Source: an uncultured Candidatus Saccharibacteria bacterium
GTDB taxonomy: Bacteria; Patescibacteriota; Doudnabacteria; UBA920
Direction: 5' to 3'
Assembly (NCBI GenBank): GCA_964532425.1
Contig: CAZHIA010000005.1
Span: forward strand, 66,772 to 130,771
Length of the DNA: 64,000 bases
The notes under the pieces were generated by a model. It ran no database searches. It was not told the DNA's origin and saw only the letters and a program-made list of their open reading frames with translations. Each line of letters opens with the position of its first letter. Position 1 is the stretch's first letter. Shown here in pieces: positions 6,700 to 64,000 of the stretch. A program made the translations under genes and the position numbers.

Positions 6700-6833
6700 A
6701 TTTACAAATTAAATACTCTGTATTTGCTCCTCGGCTCGGATGTTGATTGTATTCAACATCTCTCGCCTTACGTCGCAAATAAAACTTACTGCGGCCCAAT
6801 TTGTTAATTTGTAAATTATTAAATTTGTTAATA
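6689..6833. repeat. Nested inverted repeats in the intergenic region.
   Basis: Outer arms ttaacaaatttacaaattaa (6692-6711) and ttaatttgtaaatt (6808-6821). Inner hairpin gatgttga-ttgtat-tcaacatc at about 6737-6760. Confidence 0.4.
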
Positions 6834-8396
6834 GTACCTGCATTCTTCCTGGTTGCACAGGTAGCCGGTGTAGCCGGTCGGGGCAGCGCTCAGCAAGGTC
6901 TTGAGGGTAAACGTATCAAAAGTGGCAGAAACTTTGTACTCATAATCGACACCGGAAAGAGGATCTTTCGGTATGGCAGAAATGTACTGAGGCACTAAGT
7001 CAGTCTTATACTTTTGTTCCGTAGGAAATACATATTCCTGATCGCCGGCAATATTATTGTTGCTGTACAGCAGAAGTGCCGTACGAATGCTCTCCATGTC
7101 AGATTTGCGCTGGTCGTCGTACATAGCAGCCTCAGTCTCTGTCTTATACCGTATGCCGTCCGAAGCTTTGAGCTTGATCAGCTGGTTTTGAGTCTCGCTG
7201 TAGAAAGTGAGGACATAATCCGTACCGTCATCGTTCGGCGTGTAGGTATACACGAATTCATTCTTGTTTATCGGGTCAACGGGATTCATAGCTACCCTCA
7301 GATATGGTTTTATAGACGAGACCATTTCGCTAAAATTCGTCGTCTTTGGGTATGTATCAAGGTCCTTCTTGTAATTCGTAAGGGCAATTGCAATGTTTTT
7401 CATGGTGGTCGTACGCTGTGCGTCACGATCTTGTTTTGCTTCCGGAGAACCGTCTGCAGCAGCTGATGAAGCGGAGTTTGTCGTCTCCGGGGTCGTGGAA
7501 GGAACAGCAGGAACTGTTGTACTGGTGGAAGTCGCTGGAGTGGCAGGGGTGAATTTATAGGTGGTTATTAAGACCTCACCCAGCGCGGTTATGGTCGGCT
7601 GGTGAAGATTAAACTGCTTCATCTTGGCCGTTATGGTATCAATCTCGGCCTGGGTCATGGCATTGCCCGTTTGCAAGCTATAACCGCCCTTGATAAAGTC
7701 GGAATCGGAATATTTTGGGTCTCCGGCAGAGTGACTATTGAGCGGATCGCTCATAAAGACATGAAATTCGTCGCCATCAGCAAGGCCATCCTGGTCTGAG
7801 TCCGGATTATTTGGATCGGTCTTCATTTTAAATTCTTCCTGATTGCTCAACCCGTCACGGTCCGCATCGGCATCCGGCCCGCACTGGTTCGGGCTTTGGC
7901 AGTTGTCTGTGTTGAAATATTTCACCAGCCAGTCTTTCCATTCCTGGGTATTTTCCACGGAAGAAGGTTCAGTTGAGCTGGCCTGGCCCTGGTCGTTCCC
8001 TGGTTGCTCCTTATTTGGTTTGGGTGCATTCTCATTCAAAACAATATCGCTTTTTGAAAGCGATACTACAAATTTTTCATAGATAAAATAGCCGGCAGCA
8101 CCTGCAACCGCCAAAATGACAATTATGATAATCCCCCATTTCATGTATTTATTCATTGGTCCGCGTGGTGCCTGCGCCGCCGGCGGTTCTTGCTCGATTT
8201 TTACCACCGGACTGACAACATCCCCGGTCTTTTTTTGGCGAGGCATGACATTATAAAACAAATACTCCGGTTCGGCGGATGCTTGAATTTTCTGTTCCTG
8301 ATCAGGCTGTGTCGGCTGTTGATCCGGTTTATCTGCGGGTTTGACGGGTTGAAGGTTAGGATTCTGGGTATCCATATGAATAAGCGAACTCGGCAC
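6828..8396 (-). CDS. membrane-anchored extracellular protein with thrombospondin type-3-like Ca-binding repeats and two GspG-like pseudopilin globular domains
   Basis: One N-terminal TM (WGIIIIVILAVAGAAGYFIY). DxDxDG repeats (DADADRDGLSNQEEF, DPNNPDSDQDGLADGDEF). Two copies of the RxxD[IM]xxIxxALxxY...Y[PF] motif (RDAQRTTTMKNIAIALTNYKKDLDTYP, RKSDMESIRTALLLYSNNN) typical of GspG/pseudopilin cores. T/P/S-rich linker. Confidence 0.65.
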   Translation of the reverse strand: MPSSLIHMDTQNPNLQPVKPADKPDQQPTQPDQEQKIQASAEPEYLFYNVMPRQKKTGDVVSPVVKIEQEPPAAQAPRGPMNKYMKWGIIIIVILAVAGAAGYFIYEKFVVSLSKSDIVLNENAPKPNKEQPGNDQGQASSTEPSSVENTQEWKDWLVKYFNTDNCQSPNQCGPDADADRDGLSNQEEFKMKTDPNNPDSDQDGLADGDEFHVFMSDPLNSHSAGDPKYSDSDFIKGGYSLQTGNAMTQAEIDTITAKMKQFNLHQPTITALGEVLITTYKFTPATPATSTSTTVPAVPSTTPETTNSASSAAADGSPEAKQDRDAQRTTTMKNIAIALTNYKKDLDTYPKTTNFSEMVSSIKPYLRVAMNPVDPINKNEFVYTYTPNDDGTDYVLTFYSETQNQLIKLKASDGIRYKTETEAAMYDDQRKSDMESIRTALLLYSNNNIAGDQEYVFPTEQKYKTDLVPQYISAIPKDPLSGVDYEYKVSATFDTFTLKTLLSAAPTGYTGYLCNQEECRYY

Positions 8397-33435: not shown

Positions 33436-35520
33436 TTACTTAATCCCCTGCGGCGACAGCGTATGCAGTCCGGCCTGGTACCCACCAACCTCGCTACCCA
33501 GACAGAATGTCATGGCGTATTCCGACGTTTGCGAACGGGTGTATGTATACGTATTGTTATCGGCCGTACAACCTCCATCCGGCGGAGTGGGCGCTGTAGG
33601 AACCAAGCCTATATATGTCGGGGAAAGCTGCTGCAGATTTTCCGGGTATTGGCTCTTGTCGTTAAAGTACAGTTCAAGCGCGCTCGCCATTTGGCGCACA
33701 TCGGCCAACCGTTTGTAATCTCTGCTCTGCGACCTGCTTTCATTCATTTTTTTGAGTATATCGAGATACTCGGTCGGCGGTTTAAGCTCAACCTTGGTGC
33801 CGTAATTACTATAATCGGTATCAGCACGGAATTCCGCACTGAATTCCAATTTATCGATAAAATTCTGGATCTGCTGCCTCATCTCAGCATCAGCGTCCTG
33901 CTCCACGCCTCCTTGCCGCTCGCACTGTTCCGGCCTCCCCGGACACGGGACGGAAGACTGAATGCCGGCAGGCGTCAATTTTGCGATCCCTGCCCCATAC
34001 CCTCCAGTCGACGAACCGAGACAGAATGTCAGTTCATACGAGGAATAAACAGTTTTACCGTCAGTCGTCGTGGTTTTCTGACCATTTGGCACATACCAGT
34101 AGGAATTATAGTAATCCGTACACTTACCACTCGGCGCGGGAGACGTCGGAACTTTTCCAATATACATCGGCTCCAAGCCCACTGGCTTCCCCGAGCTGTC
34201 TACATCAGGATACCCGGAATGATCGTTAAAATACAGCTCAAGCGCGCTGGCCATTTGACGCACATCGGCCAACCGGGTCGCGTCAGCGGAGGATCCGAAG
34301 TTATCCAGTGAGTCGGCGTTCTTAACAAGCGAAACAACGGAAGGCGCATTTGTGACGAGATGCACTCGATACAATCGGAAGTCTTTTACGCCAACCCACG
34401 TATCGAACTCTTTCACTTCCACCTTATTGATCAGGCTGGCAAGGACGGCTTTCAGGGTGTTCATGTCCTGTTCGGTCACAGAGGAGTCCTTAGACCTGAC
34501 CTTCTCCGCAATCTTGTCGATATACTGGTCGGTTAATTTGGTCAAAGCCTGCTTATCGATCGTATTTTTAAAGTGCAGCGTGCTGGTCTGGTTTATTTTT
34601 TCTCTGCCGACATACTTGTCGACTTTTACAATGGTCGTGTCGTCCCACATTTTCTGCAGTTCCTGCTTAAAGGTGGGGTCAAACATTTCTTGCCAGGCCG
34701 CGGCATCGGATTTGGACTGCTCGTCCGCATTCTTGATGTCCTGCAGATTTATCTTGATCCAATCGTACTTTTTTCCGTCGCTGTCGCTTGAACTCGTCAA
34801 AGCCTGGAGCAACGGATTACTGCCGACATTGATGTATAGATTTTGATTGATCAGCTTAAACGACATGCCGGTTTTGAAACTGGTCATGCCACTGCCTTCA
34901 CCGCTGCTGAACTCATACTGAATATCAACGGATGATTCCGGATTGTTTTGGTCCGCAATGTTGGCATAGGCATCGCCGGTTACCCCGACTTTGATATTCT
35001 TGAAATTAAAGCCGAGTTCGTTCTTTTTATCATCCGGAAGCTGATTCGGATCGGTGTAGGAAACATTGAACTTGGTCTGGGTAATAGACTCTTTCGTCCC
35101 ATGGGCGAATTTGTCCCAAACTTTGGTCGGATTGTTGTAGGCGAATGTGTAATAGGCAAAAGCACCGCCACCGAGTATAACCAAAACAAGCACGGCTACA
35201 ATCGCCATAAGCAGCGTACTCCGCTTGCGCGGGACCTCTTCCTGGACCGGCTGCGCTGGCGTAGCTGCCGCTGCCGGTTGGACTTGCTGCACTGGGCTTA
35301 CAGCCTGAGCAGCGGCTGCGGGAGCAGGCTGGCTTGCTATCGGCTTTTGCTGGACACCACCTATTTTTGGCCACTTGCTCTCCACAAGCGAATCCTGCAG
35401 GAAACTCTCTTCCACGACCTTCGGATCCCAGCCTGCGGCGATCAGGTTCTTTTTAATTTCCGCATCCTGGAGGCCGTGCTCCTTGGCGGCCTTAATGTAA
35501 TTGATTATCTCAATTTCCAT
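33436..35520 (-). CDS. large membrane-anchored extracellular protein with two C-terminal GspG-like pseudopilin domains
   Basis: TM at about residues 100-125. ATRLADVRQMASALELYFNDHSGYP and KRLADVRQMASALELYFNDKSQYP repeats. Confidence 0.65.
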   Translation of the reverse strand: MEIEIINYIKAAKEHGLQDAEIKKNLIAAGWDPKVVEESFLQDSLVESKWPKIGGVQQKPIASQPAPAAAAQAVSPVQQVQPAAAATPAQPVQEEVPRKRSTLLMAIVAVLVLVILGGGAFAYYTFAYNNPTKVWDKFAHGTKESITQTKFNVSYTDPNQLPDDKKNELGFNFKNIKVGVTGDAYANIADQNNPESSVDIQYEFSSGEGSGMTSFKTGMSFKLINQNLYINVGSNPLLQALTSSSDSDGKKYDWIKINLQDIKNADEQSKSDAAAWQEMFDPTFKQELQKMWDDTTIVKVDKYVGREKINQTSTLHFKNTIDKQALTKLTDQYIDKIAEKVRSKDSSVTEQDMNTLKAVLASLINKVEVKEFDTWVGVKDFRLYRVHLVTNAPSVVSLVKNADSLDNFGSSADATRLADVRQMASALELYFNDHSGYPDVDSSGKPVGLEPMYIGKVPTSPAPSGKCTDYYNSYWYVPNGQKTTTTDGKTVYSSYELTFCLGSSTGGYGAGIAKLTPAGIQSSVPCPGRPEQCERQGGVEQDADAEMRQQIQNFIDKLEFSAEFRADTDYSNYGTKVELKPPTEYLDILKKMNESRSQSRDYKRLADVRQMASALELYFNDKSQYPENLQQLSPTYIGLVPTAPTPPDGGCTADNNTYTYTRSQTSEYAMTFCLGSEVGGYQAGLHTLSPQGIK

Positions 35521-44319: not shown

Positions 44320-45918
44320 TTATTGGTTTTTATTATACAGAATCCGCTTGAAAAAATCCAGGGTCTTTTGGGCTTGTTCGAGCCTGGTTACCATCGTCAG
44401 GATTACAAAGACAGCTAAACCGGCACCAATCGACAATCCTGATTGAACGAAGATCCCGAACGTTGTCCGGGTGTTGACCAGCGGAGCGAACAGGCGGATA
44501 CAACCGTAGCTGACCAGCCCCATTCCCAGGCTTGCTATAGAAATTTTGTAGACGAAAATGGAGAGCTTGCGGTCGAACTCCTGGATGACATCGCGACTCC
44601 CAAGCTTACTGTGCAGGATAAGGAACAACAGAAGCGCATCCAGGGTCGTCGAAAGGGCAAAAGCCGACGCTATGCCGGTGAGCCCATAAGCCCTGCCCCA
44701 GAAGTACGCCAGTACTGCGTTAAGAATGATCGAGGACAGATTGGTGCAAACCGGTATGATCGTGTTATGGCGGGCATAAAAAGACTTGGCAAACAATGGA
44801 GACAAGCTCTGGCCAATCAACGAGAACGTAAAGATGCCCAGAGTGTTCAGTGTCGCCACGGTCTCAGGCCATCCGAATTTTCCATGGCCAAGCACCAGAC
44901 GAACGATATATGCACGGAATACCATCATCAGCACAGAGATCGGGACAATGAAGAACAGAATTTGCATCGCAGTACTGGCCAATGTATCGGCAAATTTTTC
45001 GAGCCGACCTTCCGCGTAATATTCCGACAACACCGGAAATGAAGCGGTGGCTACAGAAATGGCGAATATACCGAGCGGTACCGCTTGGAGATTGTTGGCA
45101 AAATTGAAGACACTCACCGACCCGGCAACCAGTATCGAGCCGACCGAAGTTCCAATGAGCAGGCTTATTTGAGAATTATCCATGCCCAAAATGCGCGGCA
45201 AAAAAAGCCGGCCAACTTGCCGCAACACCGGCTCCTTCCAGTCCACGCTTGCACTCCACCGATAGCCGAAACGTACTGCTTCCGGGATTTGCACCAGCAG
45301 ATGGCTAACAGCTCCAATTATTACCCCAAAACCGAGCCCCATGAGCCCTAACTTTGGATACAGGAAGAACAGCCCGAATATAATCCCGAGATTGTACATG
45401 ATCGGAGCCAGGCTCACGACCAGGAACTTTTTTTGGGAATTTAAAATGCTGGTAAAGACGTTGGAAATGGTAAAGATGATTGGCGACAGCAGGAACAACC
45501 TCGTTAGCCTGACCGTGTCCTCGAATTTCCCGTCCGTAAACCCCGGTACAAGCCCGTGGGCAATCTGCCGCGAGCCGGCGTACAGAATGGCACATATCAG
45601 AATAATGCTCAACGCCGAAATATTCAGCACTGAATTGGCGATCCGGTATGCCCGGTCTTTATCTTTCATCAACCACTCGGTGAATACCGGAATGAACGCC
45701 ACGGAGAGCGTGCCCAAAACAAGCAGGTTAAACGTAAAGTCAGGAATGCGGAATGCCGCGTAGTACGTGTCGAGCGTGTCTCCCGGGCCGATCTTGCCGG
45801 CCAGCAGCGAATCGCGCAGCAAAGCCACGAGTTTTGCCACAAGCGTAAACACCCCGACAATAATCGCGGCTTTAGTGATAGAAAAATTGGTTTCCAGGCT
45901 TTGAAGTTTTCGTATCAT
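44320..45918 (-). CDS. murJ: lipid II flippase MurJ
   Basis: 532 aa, 14-TM MviN/MurJ pattern. Confidence 0.85.
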   Translation of the reverse strand: MIRKLQSLETNFSITKAAIIVGVFTLVAKLVALLRDSLLAGKIGPGDTLDTYYAAFRIPDFTFNLLVLGTLSVAFIPVFTEWLMKDKDRAYRIANSVLNISALSIILICAILYAGSRQIAHGLVPGFTDGKFEDTVRLTRLFLLSPIIFTISNVFTSILNSQKKFLVVSLAPIMYNLGIIFGLFFLYPKLGLMGLGFGVIIGAVSHLLVQIPEAVRFGYRWSASVDWKEPVLRQVGRLFLPRILGMDNSQISLLIGTSVGSILVAGSVSVFNFANNLQAVPLGIFAISVATASFPVLSEYYAEGRLEKFADTLASTAMQILFFIVPISVLMMVFRAYIVRLVLGHGKFGWPETVATLNTLGIFTFSLIGQSLSPLFAKSFYARHNTIIPVCTNLSSIILNAVLAYFWGRAYGLTGIASAFALSTTLDALLLFLILHSKLGSRDVIQEFDRKLSIFVYKISIASLGMGLVSYGCIRLFAPLVNTRTTFGIFVQSGLSIGAGLAVFVILTMVTRLEQAQKTLDFFKRILYNKNQ

Positions 45919-48062
45919 TGGCGGGAGGTCAGGACAAAACCGTAAAAATGATTACCGGCGATTTCCCCTGTAACACTGATCGAATCCGAACTAACTTGCG
46001 CATCAGCTGCATTAGTCCATTCTAGCCGTTTTCCGGGGAAATGGAAAGCGTAAGAAAATGGATAATTGACCGCGCCGATCTGTTTTTCGACAAGCAAACT
46101 CGCATGGTCCACACTACCGAGCGTGTATGGCAACAGGTACGTTAACTGGATAGTCCGGCTTTGTCCGCCTTCAAGGGTCAGCCAGTTTCCGAAAAATGTT
46201 TTGCCGGATTCCTTACCAATCAAGGTGCCGGTAGTTACGTCGCGTACGGCATTCTTTTCCCAGGCTTGGACGTCTGGATCCGTCATGTAGTCGCCGGGCG
46301 GCTGCACCAGGTCCTTCCGGTCAAAACCGCTATTGTCCACCAACACAGAACCAGCAGGCACATAAATCCGAACAAAACTGGTGTTTTCCGTGTCTTTCAT
46401 TTGGGGTAGCCGGTTCGTGCGCGTAATCGTCACATGGTTCTGAATCTGCCCGTTCGGCAAGAGCGTGGAGTCCAGTGACACCTGCTGACTGATGAACAGG
46501 TCTGTTTTCGTCCCACCCAAATTACTTGAAACGATCGACAAAAAATCCCGATCAGTATCTTTCATGCTTCCAGACCAATTAAACGCTTCAAGTAAGCTTT
46601 CCGCTTGCGGGTCACGGGAATACACGACCGCCTGTTTTTCGTTTAGACTCAGTTGGAGGTTTTCAACGAACAGTGCGAATTGGTCAGGGGGCAAGGCCGT
46701 AATTTTTTGAATGAGTACGGGGAAGAAATCGGCAAGCAGTTGCTTGGGAGTGTTCAGGGGCTGAGTGCTGCTCATCGTAGTCAGCGCTTGCACCTGTTCG
46801 ACAAAATTGTCTGAATCCAGCGTTACATTGTAGCTGGGCATCTCGATGGGGCCGGTCACTTTGAGGGTATTAACTACCACGGTCGGTGTCATGGCAATAA
46901 CCACATCAGGCGTCTCCCCTCCTTCTTTTTCGTAAAATGAAGAAATCTTGCGGGCCGTTTTCGGAAAATCGGCAAACCAGTTGCTGTCGCGCAAGTACCA
47001 GCGGTCATTGACATTGAGCACCGGTTCCGGCGGGGCAATTTTTTCTTCAAGCTGGCCGTCCAGGTCATAAATGCTGCTGATGTGCATGCGTTCGATCTGT
47101 CCATTCTGCAAATTGACAGCACCGAACGTACCGATAAAACCCCCGCCCGCGCGAAGTTCATTATTATTCTCAAAAACGAACAGGATGTTTTTGTTCCCGC
47201 GGATCAACCCGGTCCCCAAAGTAAAAAGCTGGGAAAAATTATCGGCCGTTTTAGAAAGCACAGCTAACTTGCCTTTGAGATCTGAAAATTCTGTCCGCCG
47301 CTGTTCTGGCAGAACTGATTCCTGGATCGAGGAAACTTTCTCATTTGCCGCATCGATATTTTTTACTACAAGTGACAGGGTTACTGTCAAAGAGTCTAAT
47401 ATCTGCCCACTATCCCCCGAAAAAGCCAGGCCTTGCGGGGTGAATTTTACCTGTTCAGCGGTGTGGTAAAATTCAATAATCTCCGTACCGGCCAAAGCCA
47501 TATGTTGCCCTGCTTCAATAAGATTCTCCCCTCCCTTTTTTTGAGGAAGGACACTGAATAAAGCATTAGCCAGGCTGCCTGCTGAATCCAGTTCTTGTTT
47601 ACTTTCTTTAAAATTTTTCAAAGCCGCAGTGAACTCGTTTCTCGCTCCGGTTATATCTTTATCAGACATTGACTGCTTCGCTTCGAACAAGTGCTCACTG
47701 CCCCGGGTGGCGAACTGCATGACGCGATCTTTTAACTGCAATCCTGCGGCAGCAAGATATGCAGACTGCAGAGCCAAAACCGATAAAGCCACAAGCAGCA
47801 AGAAACAACCCAAAGCAAATTTAAAATTCGCGCTGGCAGCCAGACGGCGGCGAATGCGAAGATGCAGCTTAGTTTCTACCCATTGGGCATACGCCGATCT
47901 CAAAAGCATGCCTGCCGCAAGAATGATGGCGTTCCCAATGTAGTAATTGAGCATGAATAAAGCTTTGAAAGGAGCAAAAAACGCCCGAGCGATCCACGCG
48001 CGTCGTTTGTATCCTTTCGGCTTTGGAACCGGGAGATTGTATGAAGAATGAATATGGGGCAT
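45915..48062 (-). CDS. DUF4012 domain-containing envelope protein
   Basis: N-terminal TM. FENNNELRAGGGFIGTFG is the DUF4012 hallmark. Overlaps the murJ start by 4 nt. Confidence 0.75.
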   Translation of the reverse strand: MPHIHSSYNLPVPKPKGYKRRAWIARAFFAPFKALFMLNYYIGNAIILAAGMLLRSAYAQWVETKLHLRIRRRLAASANFKFALGCFLLLVALSVLALQSAYLAAAGLQLKDRVMQFATRGSEHLFEAKQSMSDKDITGARNEFTAALKNFKESKQELDSAGSLANALFSVLPQKKGGENLIEAGQHMALAGTEIIEFYHTAEQVKFTPQGLAFSGDSGQILDSLTVTLSLVVKNIDAANEKVSSIQESVLPEQRRTEFSDLKGKLAVLSKTADNFSQLFTLGTGLIRGNKNILFVFENNNELRAGGGFIGTFGAVNLQNGQIERMHISSIYDLDGQLEEKIAPPEPVLNVNDRWYLRDSNWFADFPKTARKISSFYEKEGGETPDVVIAMTPTVVVNTLKVTGPIEMPSYNVTLDSDNFVEQVQALTTMSSTQPLNTPKQLLADFFPVLIQKITALPPDQFALFVENLQLSLNEKQAVVYSRDPQAESLLEAFNWSGSMKDTDRDFLSIVSSNLGGTKTDLFISQQVSLDSTLLPNGQIQNHVTITRTNRLPQMKDTENTSFVRIYVPAGSVLVDNSGFDRKDLVQPPGDYMTDPDVQAWEKNAVRDVTTGTLIGKESGKTFFGNWLTLEGGQSRTIQLTYLLPYTLGSVDHASLLVEKQIGAVNYPFSYAFHFPGKRLEWTNAADAQVSSDSISVTGEIAGNHFYGFVLTSRQ

Positions 48063-56363: not shown

Positions 56364-56672
56364 ATGGCCATAAATGATTTTGAGAACTTTTTAAACACAG
56401 TCAGGTATATGGATTATGAAGATGCCATAACTACCGCCGATGCCATGGCAACGAAACTTGAGAAGTCCCCGGGCAGGATGGATCGCAAGGAATCCCAGAT
56501 CCAGCATAATAAGGTCAGAGGGTTTCTCTATTGGATCAAAACGGGCAAAAAACCTACCGGGCTGACCACCCAGGAATTTCTTGAATTGCGCCCGGTGTGC
56601 GAAAATCTCATATCAAAAAAACAGCTGCACCCCACAGCGAGGGATATCTTTAAAAAATTTGGTAAATCATAG
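56364..56672 (+). CDS. hypothetical protein (102 aa)
   Basis: ORF followed by a terminator. No SD. Confidence 0.4.
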   Translation: MAINDFENFLNTVRYMDYEDAITTADAMATKLEKSPGRMDRKESQIQHNKVRGFLYWIKTGKKPTGLTTQEFLELRPVCENLISKKQLHPTARDIFKKFGKS

Positions 56673-56763: not shown

Positions 56764-58845
56764 CTAGAATTTCTGCGACTGTCCTGGCTTCAACACGGTC
56801 CGCTGTATTGGCTTTTCCGAAGAGGGTTGCGGTGCGGGAACCGTGTCTTCCTGCCTGTCGTGAGGAGCTTCCGGGAGCGGCCGCAATACCGGCTGTTGAG
56901 ACTTGGCCGGTTCGCTCATAAGACTGTTGACCACTTGCGTCAGACGCTCGTGCTCTTGCTTCTTCTTTTCTTGATGCAGGTTTGCGACAGTACTCCAAAT
57001 AGGATTCGTATTCTTCTTCGGTTCGCTGCGGTGACGGTGTTCATTCAGCTGCCGTTCCCGGCGAGTACCCTGGCCATCACGGCCGTCTCGCGGGCCGCCA
57101 TGACGGTCATCGCGTCCAAATTTCCGCACATGTCCATGGTCATTTTTATGCAATGACTGGTGCGCTGGCTGCTGCCGTTCAGGCCTTGGTACCTGGAGTG
57201 CCACCGGTTGTTCCTGCCGGACCGCAGGTTTTGGGACGATCACCGGCTTTTCAGGAATAATCGGCTGCGGAGCCTGCTGGATTACCGGCTGCGGAAGCGG
57301 CACCTGTTCCACTTCCTGGGTCAAAACAAGCAGAGGTTCGGGCTTTTTTTCTTCTGGCCGGACCTCGTCTTGCCGGGCCTCCCTGAATGATGCTACGGTT
57401 GGATGCTTCTCTTGTACCGGTTCTTCCTGGTGCTGTTCTCGCTCTTCCGAGGCTTGAGCCTCTTCCGCCTGAATAGTCAGCATTCTACCGCTCGGCAATG
57501 ATTCTACCGGAGCGCCTGCCATCTCAGCTGCGGCTTCCTGGTGGAACTCCGATCCCATCCAGCGCGTGATCTTGTCTTCCACCTCCGCTACAGGATTAGC
57601 ATACCGTTCTCGCGAGACTTTGATGACTTTGTCCGTATTACCACTGAACCAATCGGGGCTGGGAGGAATCGTGGTTGCGGAAAACGGCTCACTCGCCACG
57701 CCATTGATCATGAGTTTCAATACCACATTGAATTTCGGCAGGTTCACCAAATCATTGGGAGTAAAGGTTGGTTCGAACTCCGTCTCAAGAAACTCGGCAT
57801 CCGCCGCCCCGATGCGGAATACCACCATGGTGCCGACGTTGCCGAAAATAGCATCGCGGACTTTGGTGTTCTTATCCTGCTCGAGCTGGGCGATATATTG
57901 GTGTCCCACAATGAGATTCAAACGGTATTTTCTCGCTTCAGACAAGATGGTGGCAAAGCTCTCGGTGGCAAAATTCTGGAACTCGTCTACATACAGATAG
58001 AAATCCTTGCGCTCATGTTCCGGAATATCGGTTCTCGACATGGCTGCCAGCTGCAGCTTGGTCACCACCATGGCTCCAAGCAGCGCCGAATTGTCCTCAC
58101 CGACCTTGCCTTTGGACAGGTCCATGATCAGAATTTTGCGATTATCCATAATGTCGCGCATGTCGATAGTGCTCTTCGGCTGGCCGACGATATTGCGAAT
58201 AATGGCGCTCGACAAAAACTGCCCGACCTTATTCTGAATCGGCGCCACAGCCTCGGTGCGGTACTTTTCTGCGTAATTGGCGAATTCGTCCACCCAAAAC
58301 GCGCGGACCATAGGATCTTTAATATTGTCCACGATCTTCTTGCGGTATTTCTTATCCGCGTACATGCGGGTGATTCCGAGCAGCGTATTCCCCGGGCTGT
58401 CGAGCAAGGCCAAAATGGTGTTGTTCAGAATGTATTCCATTCTTGCCGACCACAAATTCGCCCAAATTTTGGTGAATACGCCCATGAGACCCGAAGCAAC
58501 CAAATGTTTGTATTTCGTATCCACCGCTTCGAGAATATTAAATGCCAAGGGATGATCCATGTCAGCCGGATTGAAGTAGACCACATCATTGATGCGACTA
58601 TTCGGGACGCAGTCCAAAATGCGTTGGACAGAATCCCCGTGCGGGTCAAGAAACGCCACACCATGACCGTTCCGTATATCCTGAATAACCATGGTTTCCA
58701 TTGCGGTCGTCTTACCCATACCGGTTTTACCGATAAGATACATATGCCGCCGTCGGTCGTCTGTCTTTATACCAAAAGGCACTTCCTTATTCCGGAAGTT
58801 GGTGCGGGCAAAAATCGTGATTAGATTCTTATCGTCAGTGGCCAT
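56764..58845 (-). CDS. VirD4/TraD/TrwB-type coupling-protein-like ATPase with a roughly 270-aa disordered P/Q/E/R-rich C-terminal tail
   Basis: Walker A LIGKTGMGKTT followed by VAFLDPHGD (TrwB/TraD signature). Walker B FYLYVDEFQNF. Start at the ATG at 58845 (MATDDKN). The track start at 58923 lies inside a heptamer repeat block. Confidence 0.7.
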   Translation of the reverse strand: MATDDKNLITIFARTNFRNKEVPFGIKTDDRRRHMYLIGKTGMGKTTAMETMVIQDIRNGHGVAFLDPHGDSVQRILDCVPNSRINDVVYFNPADMDHPLAFNILEAVDTKYKHLVASGLMGVFTKIWANLWSARMEYILNNTILALLDSPGNTLLGITRMYADKKYRKKIVDNIKDPMVRAFWVDEFANYAEKYRTEAVAPIQNKVGQFLSSAIIRNIVGQPKSTIDMRDIMDNRKILIMDLSKGKVGEDNSALLGAMVVTKLQLAAMSRTDIPEHERKDFYLYVDEFQNFATESFATILSEARKYRLNLIVGHQYIAQLEQDKNTKVRDAIFGNVGTMVVFRIGAADAEFLETEFEPTFTPNDLVNLPKFNVVLKLMINGVASEPFSATTIPPSPDWFSGNTDKVIKVSRERYANPVAEVEDKITRWMGSEFHQEAAAEMAGAPVESLPSGRMLTIQAEEAQASEEREQHQEEPVQEKHPTVASFREARQDEVRPEEKKPEPLLVLTQEVEQVPLPQPVIQQAPQPIIPEKPVIVPKPAVRQEQPVALQVPRPERQQPAHQSLHKNDHGHVRKFGRDDRHGGPRDGRDGQGTRRERQLNEHRHRSEPKKNTNPIWSTVANLHQEKKKQEHERLTQVVNSLMSEPAKSQQPVLRPLPEAPHDRQEDTVPAPQPSSEKPIQRTVLKPGQSQKF

Positions 58846-58892
58846 GGATATAGTATACGATATGTAATTGCAGTTAGATAGTACAAACTCAC

Positions 58893-58955
58893 AACATTTG
58901 ACATTTGACTTTCTGCGACCCAAGTCAAAGGTTAATGGTCAAACGTCAAATGTTG
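58893..58955. repeat. Heptamer TTTGAC-family composite palindrome between the TM protein and the ATPase gene.
   Basis: acatttgacatttgact ... gtcaaaggttaatggtcaaacgtcaaatgtt. Confidence 0.6.
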
Positions 58956-58959
58956 CCTT

Positions 58960-60288
58960 CTAAAAGTCTTCCGATACCGGCAAATTAATCGGCGCTGAGG
59001 CTTTCTTGCTCTCAGTCCGTTCGATAGGCACCGCAGCTGCGGTCGTCGAAATCGGGAAATGGTACAATGTAGCCAATTCCTCAACATTCATGACGAACAT
59101 GGGATTGCCAATATGCACATCACGGTTCTTATAGCCTTTAAACATCATAACCTTGCGGCGTTTTTCTTCCCATTCGATATACGGTTTTTCCAGCGTCGGG
59201 GAAATATGATATTCAAGGCTGGTCCAGGTCAGCTTAGTATCCGGCTTGAACGTGTTGGTATTGGCAGAGCCCAAAGGCCGGTACGAGCCGATGACCACGG
59301 ACTTCTTAGACCCGTCATATTTGTCCTTAGGCGCAATATATAAGTGGCGGATCTTAGTCCTGTATCCCGGTTTGCCAATTTTTCGCTGAATGAGATTGAC
59401 GCGCTCCTTCTCCATGTCAGTCATGCTTTGCCAGTTGTTCTTGGGGCCTTTTTCATCATGGCCATGACCATGACCGCCTCCTAAAAGGGCATCCTTAAAG
59501 CTAAAGTTCGCAAATGCGTTAAGCGGTGCAAGGAAAAAGTCACTCCAAGAAGCCTCATGCGCCACCGCTTCGCCAATCAACTCCTTCACCTTTGACTCCC
59601 CTTTCGGCTGCCATTCATTATCGCCAAGCGGTTGTATGATGATTTGCACCCCGTAAAATTCATGCGGACCGATCTTGGACAGTGCCTCAAAATGCGAGGC
59701 AAGAGGATCGATAACCTTTTCTTCCGCTACCGGATGCTCAAAATCTTTATATGTTTTGATAGGTATTACGTCGTCGGCCAATAGCTTATATTCGCAGCCC
59801 CAAATGTCAAAACTGCTGGTTTCTGGATCATAATTGATATTCTCCATGTAATCTTCAACCTGGGTAATTTCCGCCGTCGGATATTGCGCATAAAATGCTG
59901 CCTCGACCAGGTCCCTGGTCTTTTTTGGGCACATGATTAAAAACGAGATCTTGCCGCCCATGCTGATGATCTCCAGGCTGTACCAAAGTTGGTCCTTGCC
60001 TTCCACATATTTTTGAGCGAATGTTATCCCGGTATGGAGCGCGTGCATCTGGGCGAAAATCGATTCTACCGCGAGTGTACTGACCAAATTTTCTTTCGGA
60101 ACTTTGATGTTCAAGAAAATCCATTCCTGGCTATGAATGAACTGGTGCTGAATCTCTCCCATATACAGCCAGAACAGGATCCGAACAGTTACGAGAACGA
60201 CCAAAACCCAGCCTCCATACAAGAAAAAAGAGGCTGTCGTTCTCAGCAGATCCCCAACATTTGGGAAAATTCCCTGGAAAATATCCAT
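58960..60288 (-). CDS. hypothetical membrane protein (442 aa, N-terminal TM)
   Basis: TM FFLYGGWVLVVLVTVRILFWLYM. Its end is 114 nt upstream of the coupling-ATPase-like gene, co-oriented. Confidence 0.55.
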   Translation of the reverse strand: MDIFQGIFPNVGDLLRTTASFFLYGGWVLVVLVTVRILFWLYMGEIQHQFIHSQEWIFLNIKVPKENLVSTLAVESIFAQMHALHTGITFAQKYVEGKDQLWYSLEIISMGGKISFLIMCPKKTRDLVEAAFYAQYPTAEITQVEDYMENINYDPETSSFDIWGCEYKLLADDVIPIKTYKDFEHPVAEEKVIDPLASHFEALSKIGPHEFYGVQIIIQPLGDNEWQPKGESKVKELIGEAVAHEASWSDFFLAPLNAFANFSFKDALLGGGHGHGHDEKGPKNNWQSMTDMEKERVNLIQRKIGKPGYRTKIRHLYIAPKDKYDGSKKSVVIGSYRPLGSANTNTFKPDTKLTWTSLEYHISPTLEKPYIEWEEKRRKVMMFKGYKNRDVHIGNPMFVMNVEELATLYHFPISTTAAAVPIERTESKKASAPINLPVSEDF

Positions 60289-60400
60289 TTATTGATTTTC
60301 GGTGTTTTAATTTCAGTTACAATCACAGATTCACAGATGGCACAGATAACGCCGATAATCGGTTATCATCTGCGCCATCAGCGTTCATTCCATCTGCGAT

Positions 60401-61483
60401 CTATGCCAGGGCGTACAAGTTCCGGCCGACTTTTTTGAAAAGCTTCTTATTGGAAAGGCCAACCAGAATGGTATTCTTTTTGACCATGCGGCGCTTCATG
60501 ACTTCTTCGATGATCTTTTCGCGAGGCATCGGCTCCTTAGCCGCTTTCAGCACATCGACAATAACGTCAGCCACAACGCCAGGTTTGAAACCCCATTCAG
60601 AAAGCGCATAAATGCCGCGGCCAATAAGAATAAAGCGGTTGTCCTTAATAAGCTCGTTATGAACGGTTTCCTTGTAAGCCGTGCGGTTGTCAAATTTCGC
60701 CTTGTTGATCATGTCGGTAATGGCGGAATAGTGTTCCGGCTTGCCATGATATTTCATGACCAAGTAGGCCTTATCACCGACGTCTTTAGGGCTAATCTCT
60801 TTCCATTCCCCAAGCCCCCAATGATCGAAGACGTTCTTTTCAATCTGTTCAGCCAAGTCGAGGTAATTCAAAATGACGCGGTCCGACAAATCTTGCTGGT
60901 TTTGCTTGTAGAAATCAGTCTCTTTAAATTTCTTTAAAAAGTCCTCGGAGTGCACTGGCTTGGCCGACTCTTTCAAAATGGTGTGGCTCGTAGCGGTAAA
61001 ATCACCAAGCAATTGCTTGTTGAACAGGACCGTGATCCAGGTCTTCTTGTAATTGGCATGCAAATAATCTTCCAGTTCTTCCATGAGATGGAGCAGGAAA
61101 ATGATGGCATTACGGTCTTCTTCGCTCTTAATGCCCATGTAGCGAAGCAAGGTCTCTTCCGCCATGATCTTGCCATGTTCGGTAATCGTGTCGAGAAGCA
61201 AATTCTTGGTTTCCAGATACGTCTGCTTGTCGAGATTGGATTTGCGCAGATGCTTGATGAGATCCTTCTCAATCTGCCGCACGCGTTCGCGCGTCAAATT
61301 CTGACTCTCGCCAATGGCAGCCAAAGTTTTAATCTCATTGCCGCCCAATCCGTACCGATGGGTCAGAATCTGGCGGTCCCGCTCTTTCAGGGACTTCAAA
61401 ATATCGTTCACAATCTCAGCTGGCTTGAATTGCTGAAGTGAATCGTGCTGTTTTGTATGGATGATTGTGTCCAAAATTCCCAT
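60401..61483 (-). CDS. sigma-70 region-4 domain-containing DNA-binding protein
   Basis: LKSLKERDRQILTHRYGL ... TLAAIGESQNLTRERVRQIEKDLIKHLR is a region 4 helix-turn-helix. There are no regions 2 or 3. Confidence 0.6.
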   Translation of the reverse strand: MGILDTIIHTKQHDSLQQFKPAEIVNDILKSLKERDRQILTHRYGLGGNEIKTLAAIGESQNLTRERVRQIEKDLIKHLRKSNLDKQTYLETKNLLLDTITEHGKIMAEETLLRYMGIKSEEDRNAIIFLLHLMEELEDYLHANYKKTWITVLFNKQLLGDFTATSHTILKESAKPVHSEDFLKKFKETDFYKQNQQDLSDRVILNYLDLAEQIEKNVFDHWGLGEWKEISPKDVGDKAYLVMKYHGKPEHYSAITDMINKAKFDNRTAYKETVHNELIKDNRFILIGRGIYALSEWGFKPGVVADVIVDVLKAAKEPMPREKIIEEVMKRRMVKKNTILVGLSNKKLFKKVGRNLYALA

Positions 61484-61552
61484 ATCAGTCGAATTAGGTT
61501 ATTTGCTCATTTTCCCCTTTATTTACAGGGTGTTTATTGAGTTCGCCTATAG

Positions 61553-61581
61553 TATAGCATATATAACTTTTTCTGTCAACT
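61553..61581 (-). promoter_or_regulatory. Candidate promoter TTGACA-17-TATACT for the region-4 protein gene.
   Basis: Minus strand: ttgacagaaaaagttatatatgctatact. Confidence 0.45.
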
Positions 61582-61631: not shown

Positions 61632-61670
61632 AAAAAACATCCCGTCCCGACCAGCAGTCAGAACGGGATG
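61632..61670 (-). terminator. rho-independent terminator after secF
   Basis: catcccgt-loop-acgggatg then tttttt on the minus strand. Confidence 0.6.
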
Positions 61671-61677
61671 CAAGAGG

Positions 61678-62571
61678 TTATGCGTTGCGCATTTTCCATT
61701 TTTGCCATAAGACCAAAACAGGGCTGGCGATAAATATGGAGGAATACGTTCCCACAATGATACCAACGAACAAAGCGAGTACGAAATAACGGATAGTCTC
61801 GCCGCCAAACAAGAGCAAAGCCAGCAAGACAAACAACACGGTCAAGCTCGTATTCAACGATCTGACGATCGTTTGCGCAATACTGTGGTTTACCACAAAG
61901 TCGATGCTCTGTCCGGCGTAGACCTTGAGGTTCTCGCGGATCCGGTCAAAGACCACGATCGTGTCATGTACCGAAAATCCCAAAACCGTCAGCATGGCGG
62001 TTACGAACAAGCTGTCGACTTCCACGCCCTTGAAATGTCCGAGCACGGAGAAGAAGCCGAGAACAAACAAAAGGTCGTGTAGCAAAGCAATAACTGCTGA
62101 CCAGCCGAAGCGCCAGGAAGTAACCGGCTTGGACACGCGTCGAAACGCATACCCAATATAGAATACGATACCGAGGGAGACCAAAACGAGCTGGTAAATC
62201 GCATGCTTTTTCAATTCTTGGCCGATAACCGGTCCTATCGTATCGAGCTGGATCTCTTTAAAACTGCCTACGCCAGTCTCGAGTGCTTTTAAAACCTCGT
62301 CATGCTTAGCCTTGTCCAGACTTTCGGTCTTAATGATGAGCTGGTTATTTTCCGCGGTTTGCAGCTGATAATTACCGAGCTTTTGGGTATTGAGCGCTTC
62401 ACGAACCTTCCCCATATCAAACGGCTGGTTAAACTGGAGAATATCCTGGGTACCGCCTTTGAAATCAATCCCCAAGCGCAGACCGTACATGGAAAGGGAT
62501 ACAATGCCGAACAGCAGGATTATGCCGGAAACCGTAAACCAAAATTTTGCGTATTTTAATGTGTTGAACAT
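61678..62571 (-). CDS. secF: protein translocase subunit SecF
   Basis: MFNTLKYAKFWFTVSGIILLFGIVSLSMYGLRLGIDFKGGT and the 6-TM SecF fold. Confidence 0.9.
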   Translation of the reverse strand: MFNTLKYAKFWFTVSGIILLFGIVSLSMYGLRLGIDFKGGTQDILQFNQPFDMGKVREALNTQKLGNYQLQTAENNQLIIKTESLDKAKHDEVLKALETGVGSFKEIQLDTIGPVIGQELKKHAIYQLVLVSLGIVFYIGYAFRRVSKPVTSWRFGWSAVIALLHDLLFVLGFFSVLGHFKGVEVDSLFVTAMLTVLGFSVHDTIVVFDRIRENLKVYAGQSIDFVVNHSIAQTIVRSLNTSLTVLFVLLALLLFGGETIRYFVLALFVGIIVGTYSSIFIASPVLVLWQKWKMRNA

Positions 62572-62621
62572 ATATATTTCTAAATCGCTGATTAATCGCT
62601 GATAAGCACGCTGACCAGCGC

Positions 62622-64000
62622 CTATTCAGCGGTGGTATTAAGTTCGGCATTCTTTCGGCGGCTTACCCCGAAGAGCCACGGATGAGTCATGATGTTATTA
62701 CCGAGGAACAAGCGGAGCAGCGTGCGGGTCACGGTAATGGCCGTAAACATGGAAATGAGAATACCGATTCCCAGCGTCAGGGCGAATCCTTTAATGGATG
62801 GCGTACCGAAGGCGTACAAGATCACCGTGGTGATCAAGCTTGAGACGTTAGAATCGCGAATGGACAGCCAAGCGCGGGCGAAACCGTCATCAACAGCTTT
62901 ATGAATATCCTTCCCAGCGCGAATTTCTTCTTTCAGGCGCTCGAATATCAGGATGTTCGCGTCCACGGCCATACCAATGGACAGGATAAATCCGGTAATA
63001 CCAGCCAGTGTCAACGTTACCGGCGATAGGCCTTTCAGGAAAATAAGCAGAACATAACTTAAAAGTGCCAGCAGACCAAACCAAGAATTGACCGTAAGGC
63101 CGAGGAAAAAGAACAGCCCAACGAGGACGATCGCGGTAAATGAAATCCCGATCTTAAACACTGCAAAAGATACCAGAGCGTACATGAGCAACGCTCCAAA
63201 AGCCAGCAAGCCCGGGAAGCGGTAGTATGCGATCATGAACAAGGCAATCAGCAGTATGCCGATAAATCCCGCAATCACGGATTTTTGAATGGATTCCTGG
63301 CCCAGGGATGCGCCGACCGTTTGCTGGGTAACAAGATGGATCGGTACTGGCAAGGCTCCCGAATTCAGGCGGGTGGCCAGGGCTTTTGCCTCATCGGTCG
63401 TAAAATTGCCGGTAATGATAGCCGTGCCATCAGTAATGGCATTCTGAACGACCGGGGCGCTGATGATCTGGCCATCGAGCACGATCGCTACCGGCTTGCC
63501 CACATTGGCAGTGGTGATATCGGAGAATAATTTGGTTCCTTCGCCATTAAACTGAAGCCTGACCACAACCTGATTGGAGATTCCCCTGCCCTGCTGAAAA
63601 TCGACAGTCGCTTTTTGCAGCTGCTTGCCGGAGAGGCCGGTTGGCGACCAGGCGTCGAGCGGATTAATCTGGTTCGGCGTGGAAGTCGAGCCCAATAGCG
63701 CTGCGGCATTCGGGTTTTCTACGCGAAATTCCAGATACGGTGTCTGCCCGATCTGGTCAATTGCCTGATTGATATCTTTAATGCCGGGAAGCTCGACTAT
63801 AATACGGTCGGTGCCGGAGACCTGAACCACTGGCTCGGAAACTCCGAAGCTGTTCACGCGGCGCTCGATTGTGTCACGGATGGCATTTAAGGCATCCTGG
63901 CGGTCGCCCTGCTTAATGTCTTTGAAATCAGCCTGGTAGACCAAGTGCGAGCCTCCTTGCAGGTCTAACCCCAAACGGGTCTTGAATTGCTGAGAATACG
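62622..64000 (-). CDS. secD: protein translocase subunit SecD. Partial: the N-terminus lies beyond the right edge.
   Basis: LGLDLQGGSHLVYQAD periplasmic domain start plus the C-terminal RND-like TM bundle. The frame is open to position 64000. The track M at 63974 is a TTG. Confidence 0.85.
   Translation of the reverse strand, partial: YSQQFKTRLGLDLQGGSHLVYQADFKDIKQGDRQDALNAIRDTIERRVNSFGVSEPVVQVSGTDRIIVELPGIKDINQAIDQIGQTPYLEFRVENPNAAALLGSTSTPNQINPLDAWSPTGLSGKQLQKATVDFQQGRGISNQVVVRLQFNGEGTKLFSDITTANVGKPVAIVLDGQIISAPVVQNAITDGTAIITGNFTTDEAKALATRLNSGALPVPIHLVTQQTVGASLGQESIQKSVIAGFIGILLIALFMIAYYRFPGLLAFGALLMYALVSFAVFKIGISFTAIVLVGLFFFLGLTVNSWFGLLALLSYVLLIFLKGLSPVTLTLAGITGFILSIGMAVDANILIFERLKEEIRAGKDIHKAVDDGFARAWLSIRDSNVSSLITTVILYAFGTPSIKGFALTLGIGILISMFTAITVTRTLLRLFLGNNIMTHPWLFGVSRRKNAELNTTAE

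Follow-up and report, generated by a model that had tools for sequence, protein, structure and literature searches.

A probable split, membrane-tethered ATPase of the type IV coupling protein family in Patescibacteria

The stretch of DNA considered here (the window) comprises 64,000 nucleotides of contig CAZHIA010000005.1, from a Patescibacteria (Doudnabacteria-like) housekeeping chromosome, and our subject is a trio of co-oriented genes on its minus strand, at 56764-61483, where all three open reading frames (ORFs) are present. In order of reading they encode a DNA-binding protein of 360 amino acids (aa) with a sigma-70 region 4 and a HARE-HTH domain (60401..61483), a DUF8128 protein of 442 aa (58960..60288) and an ATPase of 693 aa, without a transmembrane (TM) helix, that resembles the type IV coupling proteins (T4CPs) VirD4 and TrwB (56764..58845, stop codon included); all features of the trio given below are on this same strand. 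The DUF8128 and ATPase genes very probably specify the two parts of a single membrane-tethered T4CP-type ATPase, split between two genes and inherited vertically as a core gene of the Patescibacteria. The wider explanation, in which this split machine works outside a type IV secretion system (T4SS) gene cluster as a self-anchored membrane motor, most likely on DNA, we would put at about an even chance. The Patescibacteria account for a large part of the diversity of bacteria, and much of their core gene set is functionally uncharacterised.

Results

Relationship of the DUF8128 and ATPase genes

The relationship of the two genes is seen most clearly in relatives where both domains lie on one chain. 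In the phage protein profile phrog_5156 (824 positions) DUF8128 matches positions 61-289 and the ATPase matches 383-811. In one of the proteins it represents, gp156 of Bacillus phage G (825 aa), residues 31-312 align to DUF8128 and residues 381-780 to the ATPase, and hhalign of the DUF8128 alignment against this protein gave a probability of 95% and an E-value of 3e-8. A local hidden Markov model (HMM) made from 335 DUF8128 sequences matched gp156 (1.8e-23), gp27.4 of phage SPO1 (6e-9), which has 906 aa and like gp156 combines DUF8128- and ATPase-like parts in one chain, and the T4CP of the Embleya plasmid NZ_CP108778 (1e-7). A search seeded with gp156 brought up more than 90 single chains of 720-1140 aa with PF26449 (DUF8128) and PF10412, PF01935 or PF12696, from Berkelbacteria, Falkowbacteria, Saccharibacteria, Gottesmanbacteria and the 'Patescibacteria group'. 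For the Embleya T4CP (812 aa) the HMM matches are weak but collinear with DUF8128, including the peptide that precedes the ATPase (ELAaLaHLP...PParIP, residues 343-393), with the ATPase domain starting from about residue 415; hhalign of DUF8128 against this single sequence was not significant (probability 4%). Since these four independent lines (the phage profile, gp156 and gp27.4, the fused chains and the Embleya protein) all agree, the boundary between the two genes of the window corresponds to the junction between the two domains. One possibility raised in a preliminary description of this DNA, a coupling protein whose N-terminal anchor is split off as the membrane protein, is therefore strongly supported, and DUF8128 is best regarded as the detached N-terminal half of the ATPase.

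The fused Patescibacteria proteins, among them SEML1_0293 and SEML1_0142 of Southlakia epibionticum and P0418-P0509, have the same two domains in the same order, whereas in the window and the fetched ABY1 relatives they are divided between two genes. The phage G gp156/SPO1 family is fused too, with an ATPase of the same type at 25-29% identity, but differs from the window proteins in having no N-terminal TM helix, in its C-terminus (...LEFLD) and in being phage-borne. In the Embleya protein a TM helix at the N-terminus and a divergent DUF8128-like region precede an ATPase 30-31% identical to that of the window; the protein differs in being fused, in having no long tail and in belonging to a PrgI-VirB4-T4CP-Replic_Relax-NlpC/P60 locus of the conjugation type.

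In the jumbo phage G the VirB4-like gp155 (P-loop_TraG, AAA_10) lies directly upstream of the fused gp156 (L086:1220-5362), which is mis-annotated as 'MsbA-like'; a phage-borne pair of VirB4 and T4CP is odd. SPO1-like phages carry the 906-aa homologue at L087:3747-6467. In one metagenome-assembled genome (MAG) residues 1-238 of DUF8128 run into the ATPase from about its residue 114, giving an ORF of 856 aa (L054:6001-7926), which is more suggestive of an internal deletion or of misassembly than of a natural fusion.

The ATPase motor

The start of the ATPase was placed at the ATG at 58845, giving 693 aa, in preference to a TTG at 58923 (719 aa), in line with the public gene call and with where the proteins of relatives begin. 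Its core (residues 1-440, 57526..58845) is 63-90% identical over 76 species genomes. Within the core are a Walker A motif, GKTGMGKT (residues 39-46, 58708..58731), invariant in alignments A2 and A3 and alignable to TrwB, and a Walker B region, DFYLYVDEFQNF (residues 281-292, 57970..58005), also invariant, in which YLYVDEFQNF at residues 283-292 aligns with the Walker B of TrwB. FLDPHGD, the third part of the TrwB/TraD signature reported in the preliminary description, is present as well. The same description had the ATPase without a TM anchor of its own, which agrees with the hydropathy scan: no TM segment was found in the window protein, where Walker A starts at residue 39, nor in 75 of 76 ATPases, a TM helix being present in the remaining one.

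Profile searches placed the ATPase by its best Pfam match with TrwB_AAD_bind (4.7e-15; residues 53-372), with further matches to DUF87, TraG-D_C and T4SS-DNA_transf and none to AAA_10, CagE or FtsK_SpoIIIE. When the PDB was searched by profile the only significant relatives were TrwB (3.4e-7) and DotL (2.3e-5). For an AlphaFold2 (AF2) model of low confidence, with a predicted local distance difference test (pLDDT) of 54, the best Foldseek matches were DotL, Cagbeta and TrwB; HerA and the C-terminal domain of DndH came next, and VirB4 ranked much lower. The T4CPs (TrwB of R388, VirD4, TraD, DotL and Cagbeta) have in common with the window ATPase their Pfam family, intact Walker A and B motifs and perhaps a helical region between them: the all-alpha domain inserted in the nucleotide-binding domain of T4CPs might correspond to nine helices that the model places at residues 110-234, where pLDDT is below 50. 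They supply its only significant PDB sequence relatives and its best fold matches, although identity to the solved T4CPs is only about 14-16%. The ATPase is nearer to the T4CPs than to VirB4, FtsK or HerA. In canonical T4CPs the TM domain is on the ATPase chain, whereas here a separate gene encodes the anchor, which has one helix, and they are without the domain of about 360 aa, predicted to be VirB4-like, that this anchor gene carries.

The trio might also be read as an FtsK/SpoIIIE-like segregation pump made from separate parts, namely an anchor, a motor bearing a tail that resembles a linker, and a winged helix that reads DNA. The list of parts is analogous, and the cell-envelope and division genes mraY, murD and ftsW are in the neighbourhood. 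However, none of the FtsK alpha/beta motor and gamma models (PF01580, PF17854, PF09397) matches the ATPase, and FtsK is not among its PDB sequence or fold matches. Furthermore, S. epibionticum has a complete and essential canonical FtsK, with 4TM, alpha, motor and gamma domains, while SEML1_0293, the presumed orthologue of the window pair, is non-essential (Wang et al. 2023, PMC10633639). Such a pump is extremely unlikely, and a replacement for FtsK was rejected on the essential FtsK of that species and the lack of an FtsK signal in the sequence and fold searches.

The closest plasmid match, ahead of any conjugative T4CP, is a stand-alone ATPase of 395 aa, 38.9% identical to that of the window, which lies between transposases on the alphaproteobacterial plasmid NZ_CP081110 of Sulfitobacter mediterraneus (L088:6938-8125). 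It has no N-domain, anchor or tail and may represent horizontal transfer of the motor alone.

The DUF8128 anchor protein

The assignment to PF26449 comes from public precomputed annotation, which covers the window protein (weakly in L005) and most relatives; a local Pfam scan gave no match for the 442-aa protein. A profile made from 20 DUF8128 members matched 2,531 clusters at E<=1e-3. Hydropathy indicates a single TM helix at residues 21-43 (60160..60228), which is helical in the AF2 model, and an N-terminal TM helix is found by the same scan in 72 of 79 family members. The rest of the protein is soluble. It is thus anchored in the membrane as originally described, but it is a single-pass anchor with a soluble domain and not the large, polytopic membrane protein that the wording implied. 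Because no further TM segment precedes the ATPase in the fused forms, the soluble domain is presumably cytoplasmic.

This domain (residues 55-415, 59044..60126) is of alpha/beta type in the AF2 model, which has a pLDDT of 75 and a predicted template modelling score (pTM) of 0.73. Its best PDB matches by Foldseek are TrwK/VirB4 of R388, with probabilities of 0.99-1.0, E-values of about 2e-4 and template modelling scores of 0.29-0.38, and in BFVD it matches gp156 of phage G (1.3e-15) and the VirB4-like gp155 (1.4e-6). Comparison by sequence revealed no similarity of DUF8128 to VirB4 and no link to any solved structure. We therefore treat the resemblance to the VirB4 N-domain, which comes from the models, as a supported lead that is not yet established. 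VirB4 (TrwK of R388) has an N-domain followed by an FtsK/HerA-type ATPase, a layout like that of DUF8128 and the ATPase together, but the ATPase half of the window pair groups with VirD4 and not with VirB4. In VirB3-VirB4 fusions attachment to the membrane is by a short N-terminal element, comparable to the DUF8128 anchor.

The C-terminus of DUF8128 carries a peptide, EELATLYHFPI ... ESKKxxxPxNLPV (58975..59082), of invariant or near-invariant alignment columns, and in the fused relatives this peptide directly precedes the ATPase domain. A His/Gly-rich insert, GGGHGHGHDEKGPKNNW (59450-59500, residues ~262-281), lies with low model confidence in a variable loop, and its length and composition differ widely between relatives; in gp156 of phage G there is a hydrophobic segment at this place.

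The ATPase tail and its terminal peptide

TraD and DotL have a C-terminal extension that ends in a conserved peptide, and the window ATPase can be compared with them in this respect. Its last 253 aa (residues 441-693, 56767..57525) form a low-complexity tail rich in P (13%), E (12%), Q (12%) and R (9%), the same four residues that the preliminary description had noted as abundant. The tail had also been called repeat-like, which we rejected, since TRF and self-comparison found no true repeats, only a 15-nt array of 1.9 copies and two weak 7-mer echoes. In the 76 relatives the tail varies from 85 to 254 aa and its sequence cannot be aligned, with two exceptions. One is an island, KKNTNPIWSTVANL (56977..57018), with near-invariant I, W and K columns in alignment A3, which is kept in close relatives only. 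The other is the extreme C-terminal peptide, RTVLKPGQSQKF (56767..56802), for which most tails follow the pattern [KR][KT][VI]L[KQ]PG[QE][ST]x[K][FLI], the window having VLKPGQSQKF. By a crude test, P[GN] occurs within the last 22 residues in 62 of 76 relatives, mostly 7 residues from the end, and the fused orthologues of other lineages end in LEDGQIVKF, LKDGETVKL or LDDGKTIKL.

In the published structure-based annotation of SEML1_0293 the P-loop domain is made up of residues 361-795 together with residues 901-920 (PMC10633639). Since these last residues are grouped with the P-loop domain, it would seem most likely that the tip of the tail, a tethered peptide, folds back and docks on the ATPase domain of its own chain or of a neighbouring one.

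Conservation and gene order

In a scan of one genome per species a relative of DUF8128 was found in at least 573 genomes, and 80 loci were fetched; the counts that follow are for those loci with enough sequence to evaluate. The ATPase gene directly follows DUF8128 in 76 of 77 species-representative loci, with a gap of at most 10 nt in 35 of them and often of 1-5 nt, and the sigma4/HARE-HTH gene precedes DUF8128 in 73 of 76, so that the order of all three genes, whose conservation had been proposed as a check, is kept in relatives. This arrangement is far beyond chance. In the sole exception, a Falkowbacteria contig (L082, 1579-5415), DUF8128 is followed by ybeY, the diacylglycerol kinase gene dagK and ftsA, and the ATPase gene must be elsewhere or lost. 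The ATPase core is the best conserved part; identity of DUF8128 and of the regulator drops to about 32%.

The trio is also tied to its surroundings. In the window secF and secD (61678-63974) lie immediately upstream on the same strand, and secD-secF are found in this position and orientation in 61 of the 64 loci with enough upstream sequence. The adjacency holds in the most divergent loci, at a DUF8128 identity of 32-37%, and in the regulator-less L070; in Berkelbacteria secDF is adjacent but convergent. The neighbours of the trio are secDF, trx, PBP5, mraY and murD, and the window as a whole carries gyrB, a UvrD/PD-(D/E)XK helicase-nuclease gene, PBP1, ATP synthase, lepA, murJ, murD, mraY and secDF. 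No VirB4 gene, relaxase gene or second copy of the DUF8128 or ATPase gene was found in the 64 kb, nor any relaxase or VirB4 gene in the annotated flanks of L001, L003, L005 and L090. The window pair thus differs from the known T4CPs in having no relaxase or T4SS genes nearby and in being a chromosomal core gene with housekeeping-level conservation. The non-conjugative reading offered in the preliminary description fits the orthologue group of the window, which is always found among housekeeping genes.

A mobile element or prophage was rejected, as GC content is uniform over the region, core genes flank the trio and different species keep the same order. A related proposal would be an anti-phage defence module, or the remnant of a mobile element or prophage, with a DndH/MADS/HerA-type ATPase and an MzaA-like sigma protein. 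PADLOC does match mad8 (4e-16), DndH (5e-4) and HerA for the ATPase and MzaA (9e-9) for the sigma-like protein, Bacillus phages carry fused homologues, and the fold matches include the C-domain of DndH. The PADLOC matches are, however, limited to the shared P-loop or region 4 domain, and near the trio there is no nuclease, methyltransferase or other partner of a defence system, only housekeeping neighbours. A gene set that is near-universal, vertical, highly conserved and fixed in a housekeeping context is the opposite of the patchy and fast-evolving defence islands. We consider this proposal very unlikely and rejected a defence system as the principal interpretation.

The sigma4/HARE-HTH gene and transcription of the trio

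The first protein of the trio was described initially as consisting mainly of sigma-70 region 4. A region 4 helix-turn-helix (HTH) is indeed present (residues 29-81, 61241..61399; Pfam Sigma70_r4, 5e-12), but 'mainly' does not hold, as there is also a HARE-HTH winged helix (residues 238-297, 60593..60772; PF05066, 5e-12). The latter region matches the RNA polymerase delta-subunit model TIGR04567 at 1.2e-8, below the cut-off of that model. Sigma region 2, responsible for core binding and recognition of the -10 element, was not found in the Pfam and NCBIfam scans; region 4 alone was matched, and the NCBIfam sigma matches cover only the last ~70 model positions with scores far under the cut-offs. 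Judged by its domains, the protein is a DNA-binding protein and not a sigma factor.

A strong terminator-like hairpin directly downstream of secF (61637..61671; a 16-bp stem with 8 GC pairs, then a T-run) divides secDF from the trio. It is followed by the best sigma-70-type promoter-like site of the region (61551..61579; TTGACA-17-TATACT with TG), which matches the consensus hexamers at 11 of 12 positions and precedes the first trio gene. Consensus pattern matching found no comparable site in the two internal gaps and no strong terminator inside the trio; weak terminator-like hairpins (56624..56646) lie about 120 nt past the stop codon of the ATPase. The hairpin after secF, the promoter-like site and the lack of a strong internal terminator together suggest that the trio is one transcription unit.

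Another reading is a three-protein DNA device, in which the sigma4/HARE protein would be a DNA-recognition adaptor in the role of TraM or FtsK gamma, caught by the peptide at the end of the tail and loading specific DNA onto the motor. The single good promoter-like site and absence of a strong internal terminator are in keeping with this, as are the conserved tail peptide and the depth of the synteny: the order regulator-DUF8128-ATPase in 73 of 76 ABY1 loci has its counterpart in the Saccharimonadia, where SEML1_0294, a protein of 349 aa with Sigma70_r4 and HARE-HTH and the presumed orthologue of the window regulator, is encoded directly upstream of SEML1_0293 (PMC10633639, Tables S1, S2). By transposon sequencing (Tn-seq), on the other hand, SEML1_0294 is essential, while SEML1_0293 is non-essential, with normalised reads of 5817, 2940 and 1372 from T0 to T2 (PMC10633639). 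This difference between adjacent genes means that the sigma4/HARE protein does more than serve the ATPase, and it must have another, dominant role. The gene is moreover absent upstream of the fused orthologues in Berkelbacteria and in L070, and the tail tip appears in the model-based annotation to dock on the ATPase itself. A three-protein device is accordingly improbable; the sigma4/HARE gene is a deeply syntenic neighbour and is not counted here as a proven part of the machine.

Paralogous groups and the relationship to type IV secretion

When the fused proteins were sorted by the identity of the window ATPase core to them, at least three paralogous groups of DUF8128-T4CPs with different contexts were distinguished. 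The window-type fused group is 55-60% identical and has the TM helix, the long tail and the C-terminal motif. A second group, 50-53% identical and ~725-736 aa long, has neither TM helix nor tail, and one of its members, P0484, divergently adjoins a PrgI/VirB4 cluster. The 'paralog B' group, at 41-48%, has a TM helix, a short tail and a small gene upstream, and is essential in S. epibionticum; to it belongs a Saccharibacteria protein whose context matches that of SEML1_0141/0142. The fused, T4SS-adjacent P0493 (918 aa) is 40% identical, and both P0493 and P0476 are other paralogues, not of the window type. Berkelbacteria have two fused paralogues in tandem beside the convergent secDF.

SEML1_0293 (921 aa, with TrwB_AAD_bind at residues 402-719) is presumed to be the orthologue of the window pair from its synteny and Pfam content, not from its sequence; Wang et al. 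2023 (PMC10633639) class both it and SEML1_0294 as 'core' and 'Patescibacteria-enriched'. Their data make the paralogue SEML1_0142 essential, likewise the genes of the T4SS, and the com genes non-essential (PMC10633639).

The main rival to a motor outside T4SS is that the pair acts in trans for the chromosomal Patescibacteria T4SS encoded elsewhere, as its coupling protein or as an alternative coupling protein, docking on the VirB3/VirB4/VirB6 platform through DUF8128 and delivering a set of substrates that its tail recruits. With relatives beside T4SS genes at 50-53% identity (the group without TM helix and tail) and at 40%, such coupling is quite possible, and a more distant relative (30-31%) is found in the PrgI-VirB4-T4CP-relaxase locus. 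A hallmark of T4CPs is a long C-terminal tail to which adaptors bind, as in TraD with TraM and DotL with its adaptors. The preliminary description had held that finding the ATPase in a complete T4SS locus in relatives would speak against a non-conjugative role. Relatives near T4SS genes do occur, but as paralogues only (at 40-53% beside PrgI/VirB4, at 30-31% with a relaxase), and not in the window group, which is always syntenic with housekeeping genes and whose ATPase core keeps its high identity (63-90%) in the fetched relatives.

The published passages of a survey of the phylum bear on both sides. They describe about 80% of Patescibacteria as having a T4SS, usually with no linked T4CP, which favours coupling in trans (Quinonero-Coronel et al. 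2025, PMC12102498). They count 5,713 VirD4-like T4CP homologues in 2,918 of 3,035 genomes, of which 148 of the 5,713 are near virB4, and VirB4 in 2,417 of 3,035 genomes; T4CP homologues are thus more widespread than VirB4 (PMC12102498), which counts against coupling. There exaptation 'cannot be ruled out', and the passages searched make no mention of a sigma-like neighbour (PMC12102498). Against coupling, too, is the non-essential SEML1_0293 beside an essential T4SS, for which the essential paralogue SEML1_0142 would be the better candidate. On balance we regard coupling to a T4SS in trans as a tentative alternative, to be taken seriously though not favoured.

Discussion

A proposed motor outside the T4SS gene cluster

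The preferred explanation is that the DUF8128 and ATPase genes encode one machine, a T4CP-type ATPase split at its domain boundary. DUF8128 would contribute one N-out/C-in membrane helix and a cytoplasmic module like the VirB4 N-domain, whose C-terminal peptide would abut the ATPase. The ATPase would contribute the VirD4/TrwB-type Walker A/B motor, such motors being presumed hexameric, and a long flexible tail whose last ~12 residues would form the tethered docking peptide, likely folding back on its own or a neighbouring ATPase. The pair would be transcribed with, or just after, the sigma4/HARE-HTH gene. The window paralogue would have left the T4SS gene cluster and would work at the cytoplasmic membrane as a motor with its own anchor; its likeliest substrate would be DNA, handled for instance in uptake or transfer. 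Its role would be one under strong selection in nature that is dispensable in laboratory co-culture. The analysis shows the homology, the relation of split to fused forms, the membrane anchor, the synteny and the conserved peptides, and from there we infer the formation of a hexamer, the docking of the tail, the independence from T4SS and the DNA substrate. For the independence speak the small fraction of T4CP homologues near virB4 (148 of 5,713), the greater number of genomes with T4CP homologues than with VirB4 (2,918 against 2,417, of 3,035) and the non-essential SEML1_0293 where the T4SS is essential.

Several points weigh against this explanation. The orthology of SEML1_0293 is assigned from synteny and Pfam content only. 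The likeness of DUF8128 to the VirB4 N-domain comes with low template modelling scores (0.34-0.38) and no sequence signal, and the ATPase model (pLDDT 54) was made from a shallow alignment of sequences 80-89% identical. Docking of the tail relies on how a published AlphaFold model from a different species was divided into domains. DNA is suggested as the substrate by analogy only, from the behaviour of the T4CP/FtsK/HerA clade and from the DNA-binding neighbour. Finally, there is the 50-53% paralogue beside PrgI/VirB4 and the 40% fused protein adjacent to a T4SS. T4CPs are often encoded apart from the genes for mating-pair formation, and the excess of T4CP over VirB4 genomes could come from incomplete MAGs.

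A more specific proposal, that the pair is a phylum-wide, T4SS-independent motor, either the inner-membrane ATPase of DNA uptake or a new export route, gated by the sigma4/HARE protein or by the tail peptide, we consider rather unlikely. ComEC, ComFC and DprA have been described for Patescibacteria, and ComFA is not mentioned. On the same view the architecture, in which the N-domain is VirB4-like and the motor VirD4-like, might survive from a stage intermediate between these two families of T4SS ATPases.

Significance of the anatomy

The ATPase family, the Pfam entry for DUF8128 and the existence of orphan T4CPs in the phylum are already known. A literature search for 'DUF8128' returned nothing, and in the literature searched we did not find the split and fusion, the VirB4-like fold of the N-domain, the paralogue structure, the terminal peptide or the block of SecDF, sigma4/HARE, DUF8128 and ATPase. 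With these the orphan VirD4-like genes gain an anatomy, in which DUF8128 is an obligatory partner or N-domain, the paralogues fall into at least three groups, a C-terminal peptide is probably tethered and the genes form a block with SecDF. This anatomy has a bearing on the relationship of VirB4 to VirD4 ATPases. S. epibionticum is the one genetically tractable relative, with SEML1_0293 dispensable and SEML1_0142 and SEML1_0294 essential.

Other features of the window

On the plus strand an ORF of 102 aa (56364-56672), which the public contig annotation includes as a gene, runs towards the end of the ATPase gene in convergent orientation. It has no family match and is missing at the same position in L001 and L003, so it appears to be lineage-specific. 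Two large ORFs on the minus strand have no Pfam match at 1e-5, one of 694 aa (33436-35520) and one of 522 aa (6828-8396), and a DUF4012 protein of 715 aa (45915-48062) adjoins murJ; all three are uncharacterised Patescibacteria proteins. The Rfam gathering scan of the window found four tRNAs and no other structured RNA. Among the Doudnabacteria/ABY1-type carriers of the locus (L020-L057 and others) many MAGs are titled 'uncultured Candidatus Saccharibacteria bacterium' or 'uncultured Gammaproteobacteria bacterium', and for these bins the record names are unreliable as taxonomy.

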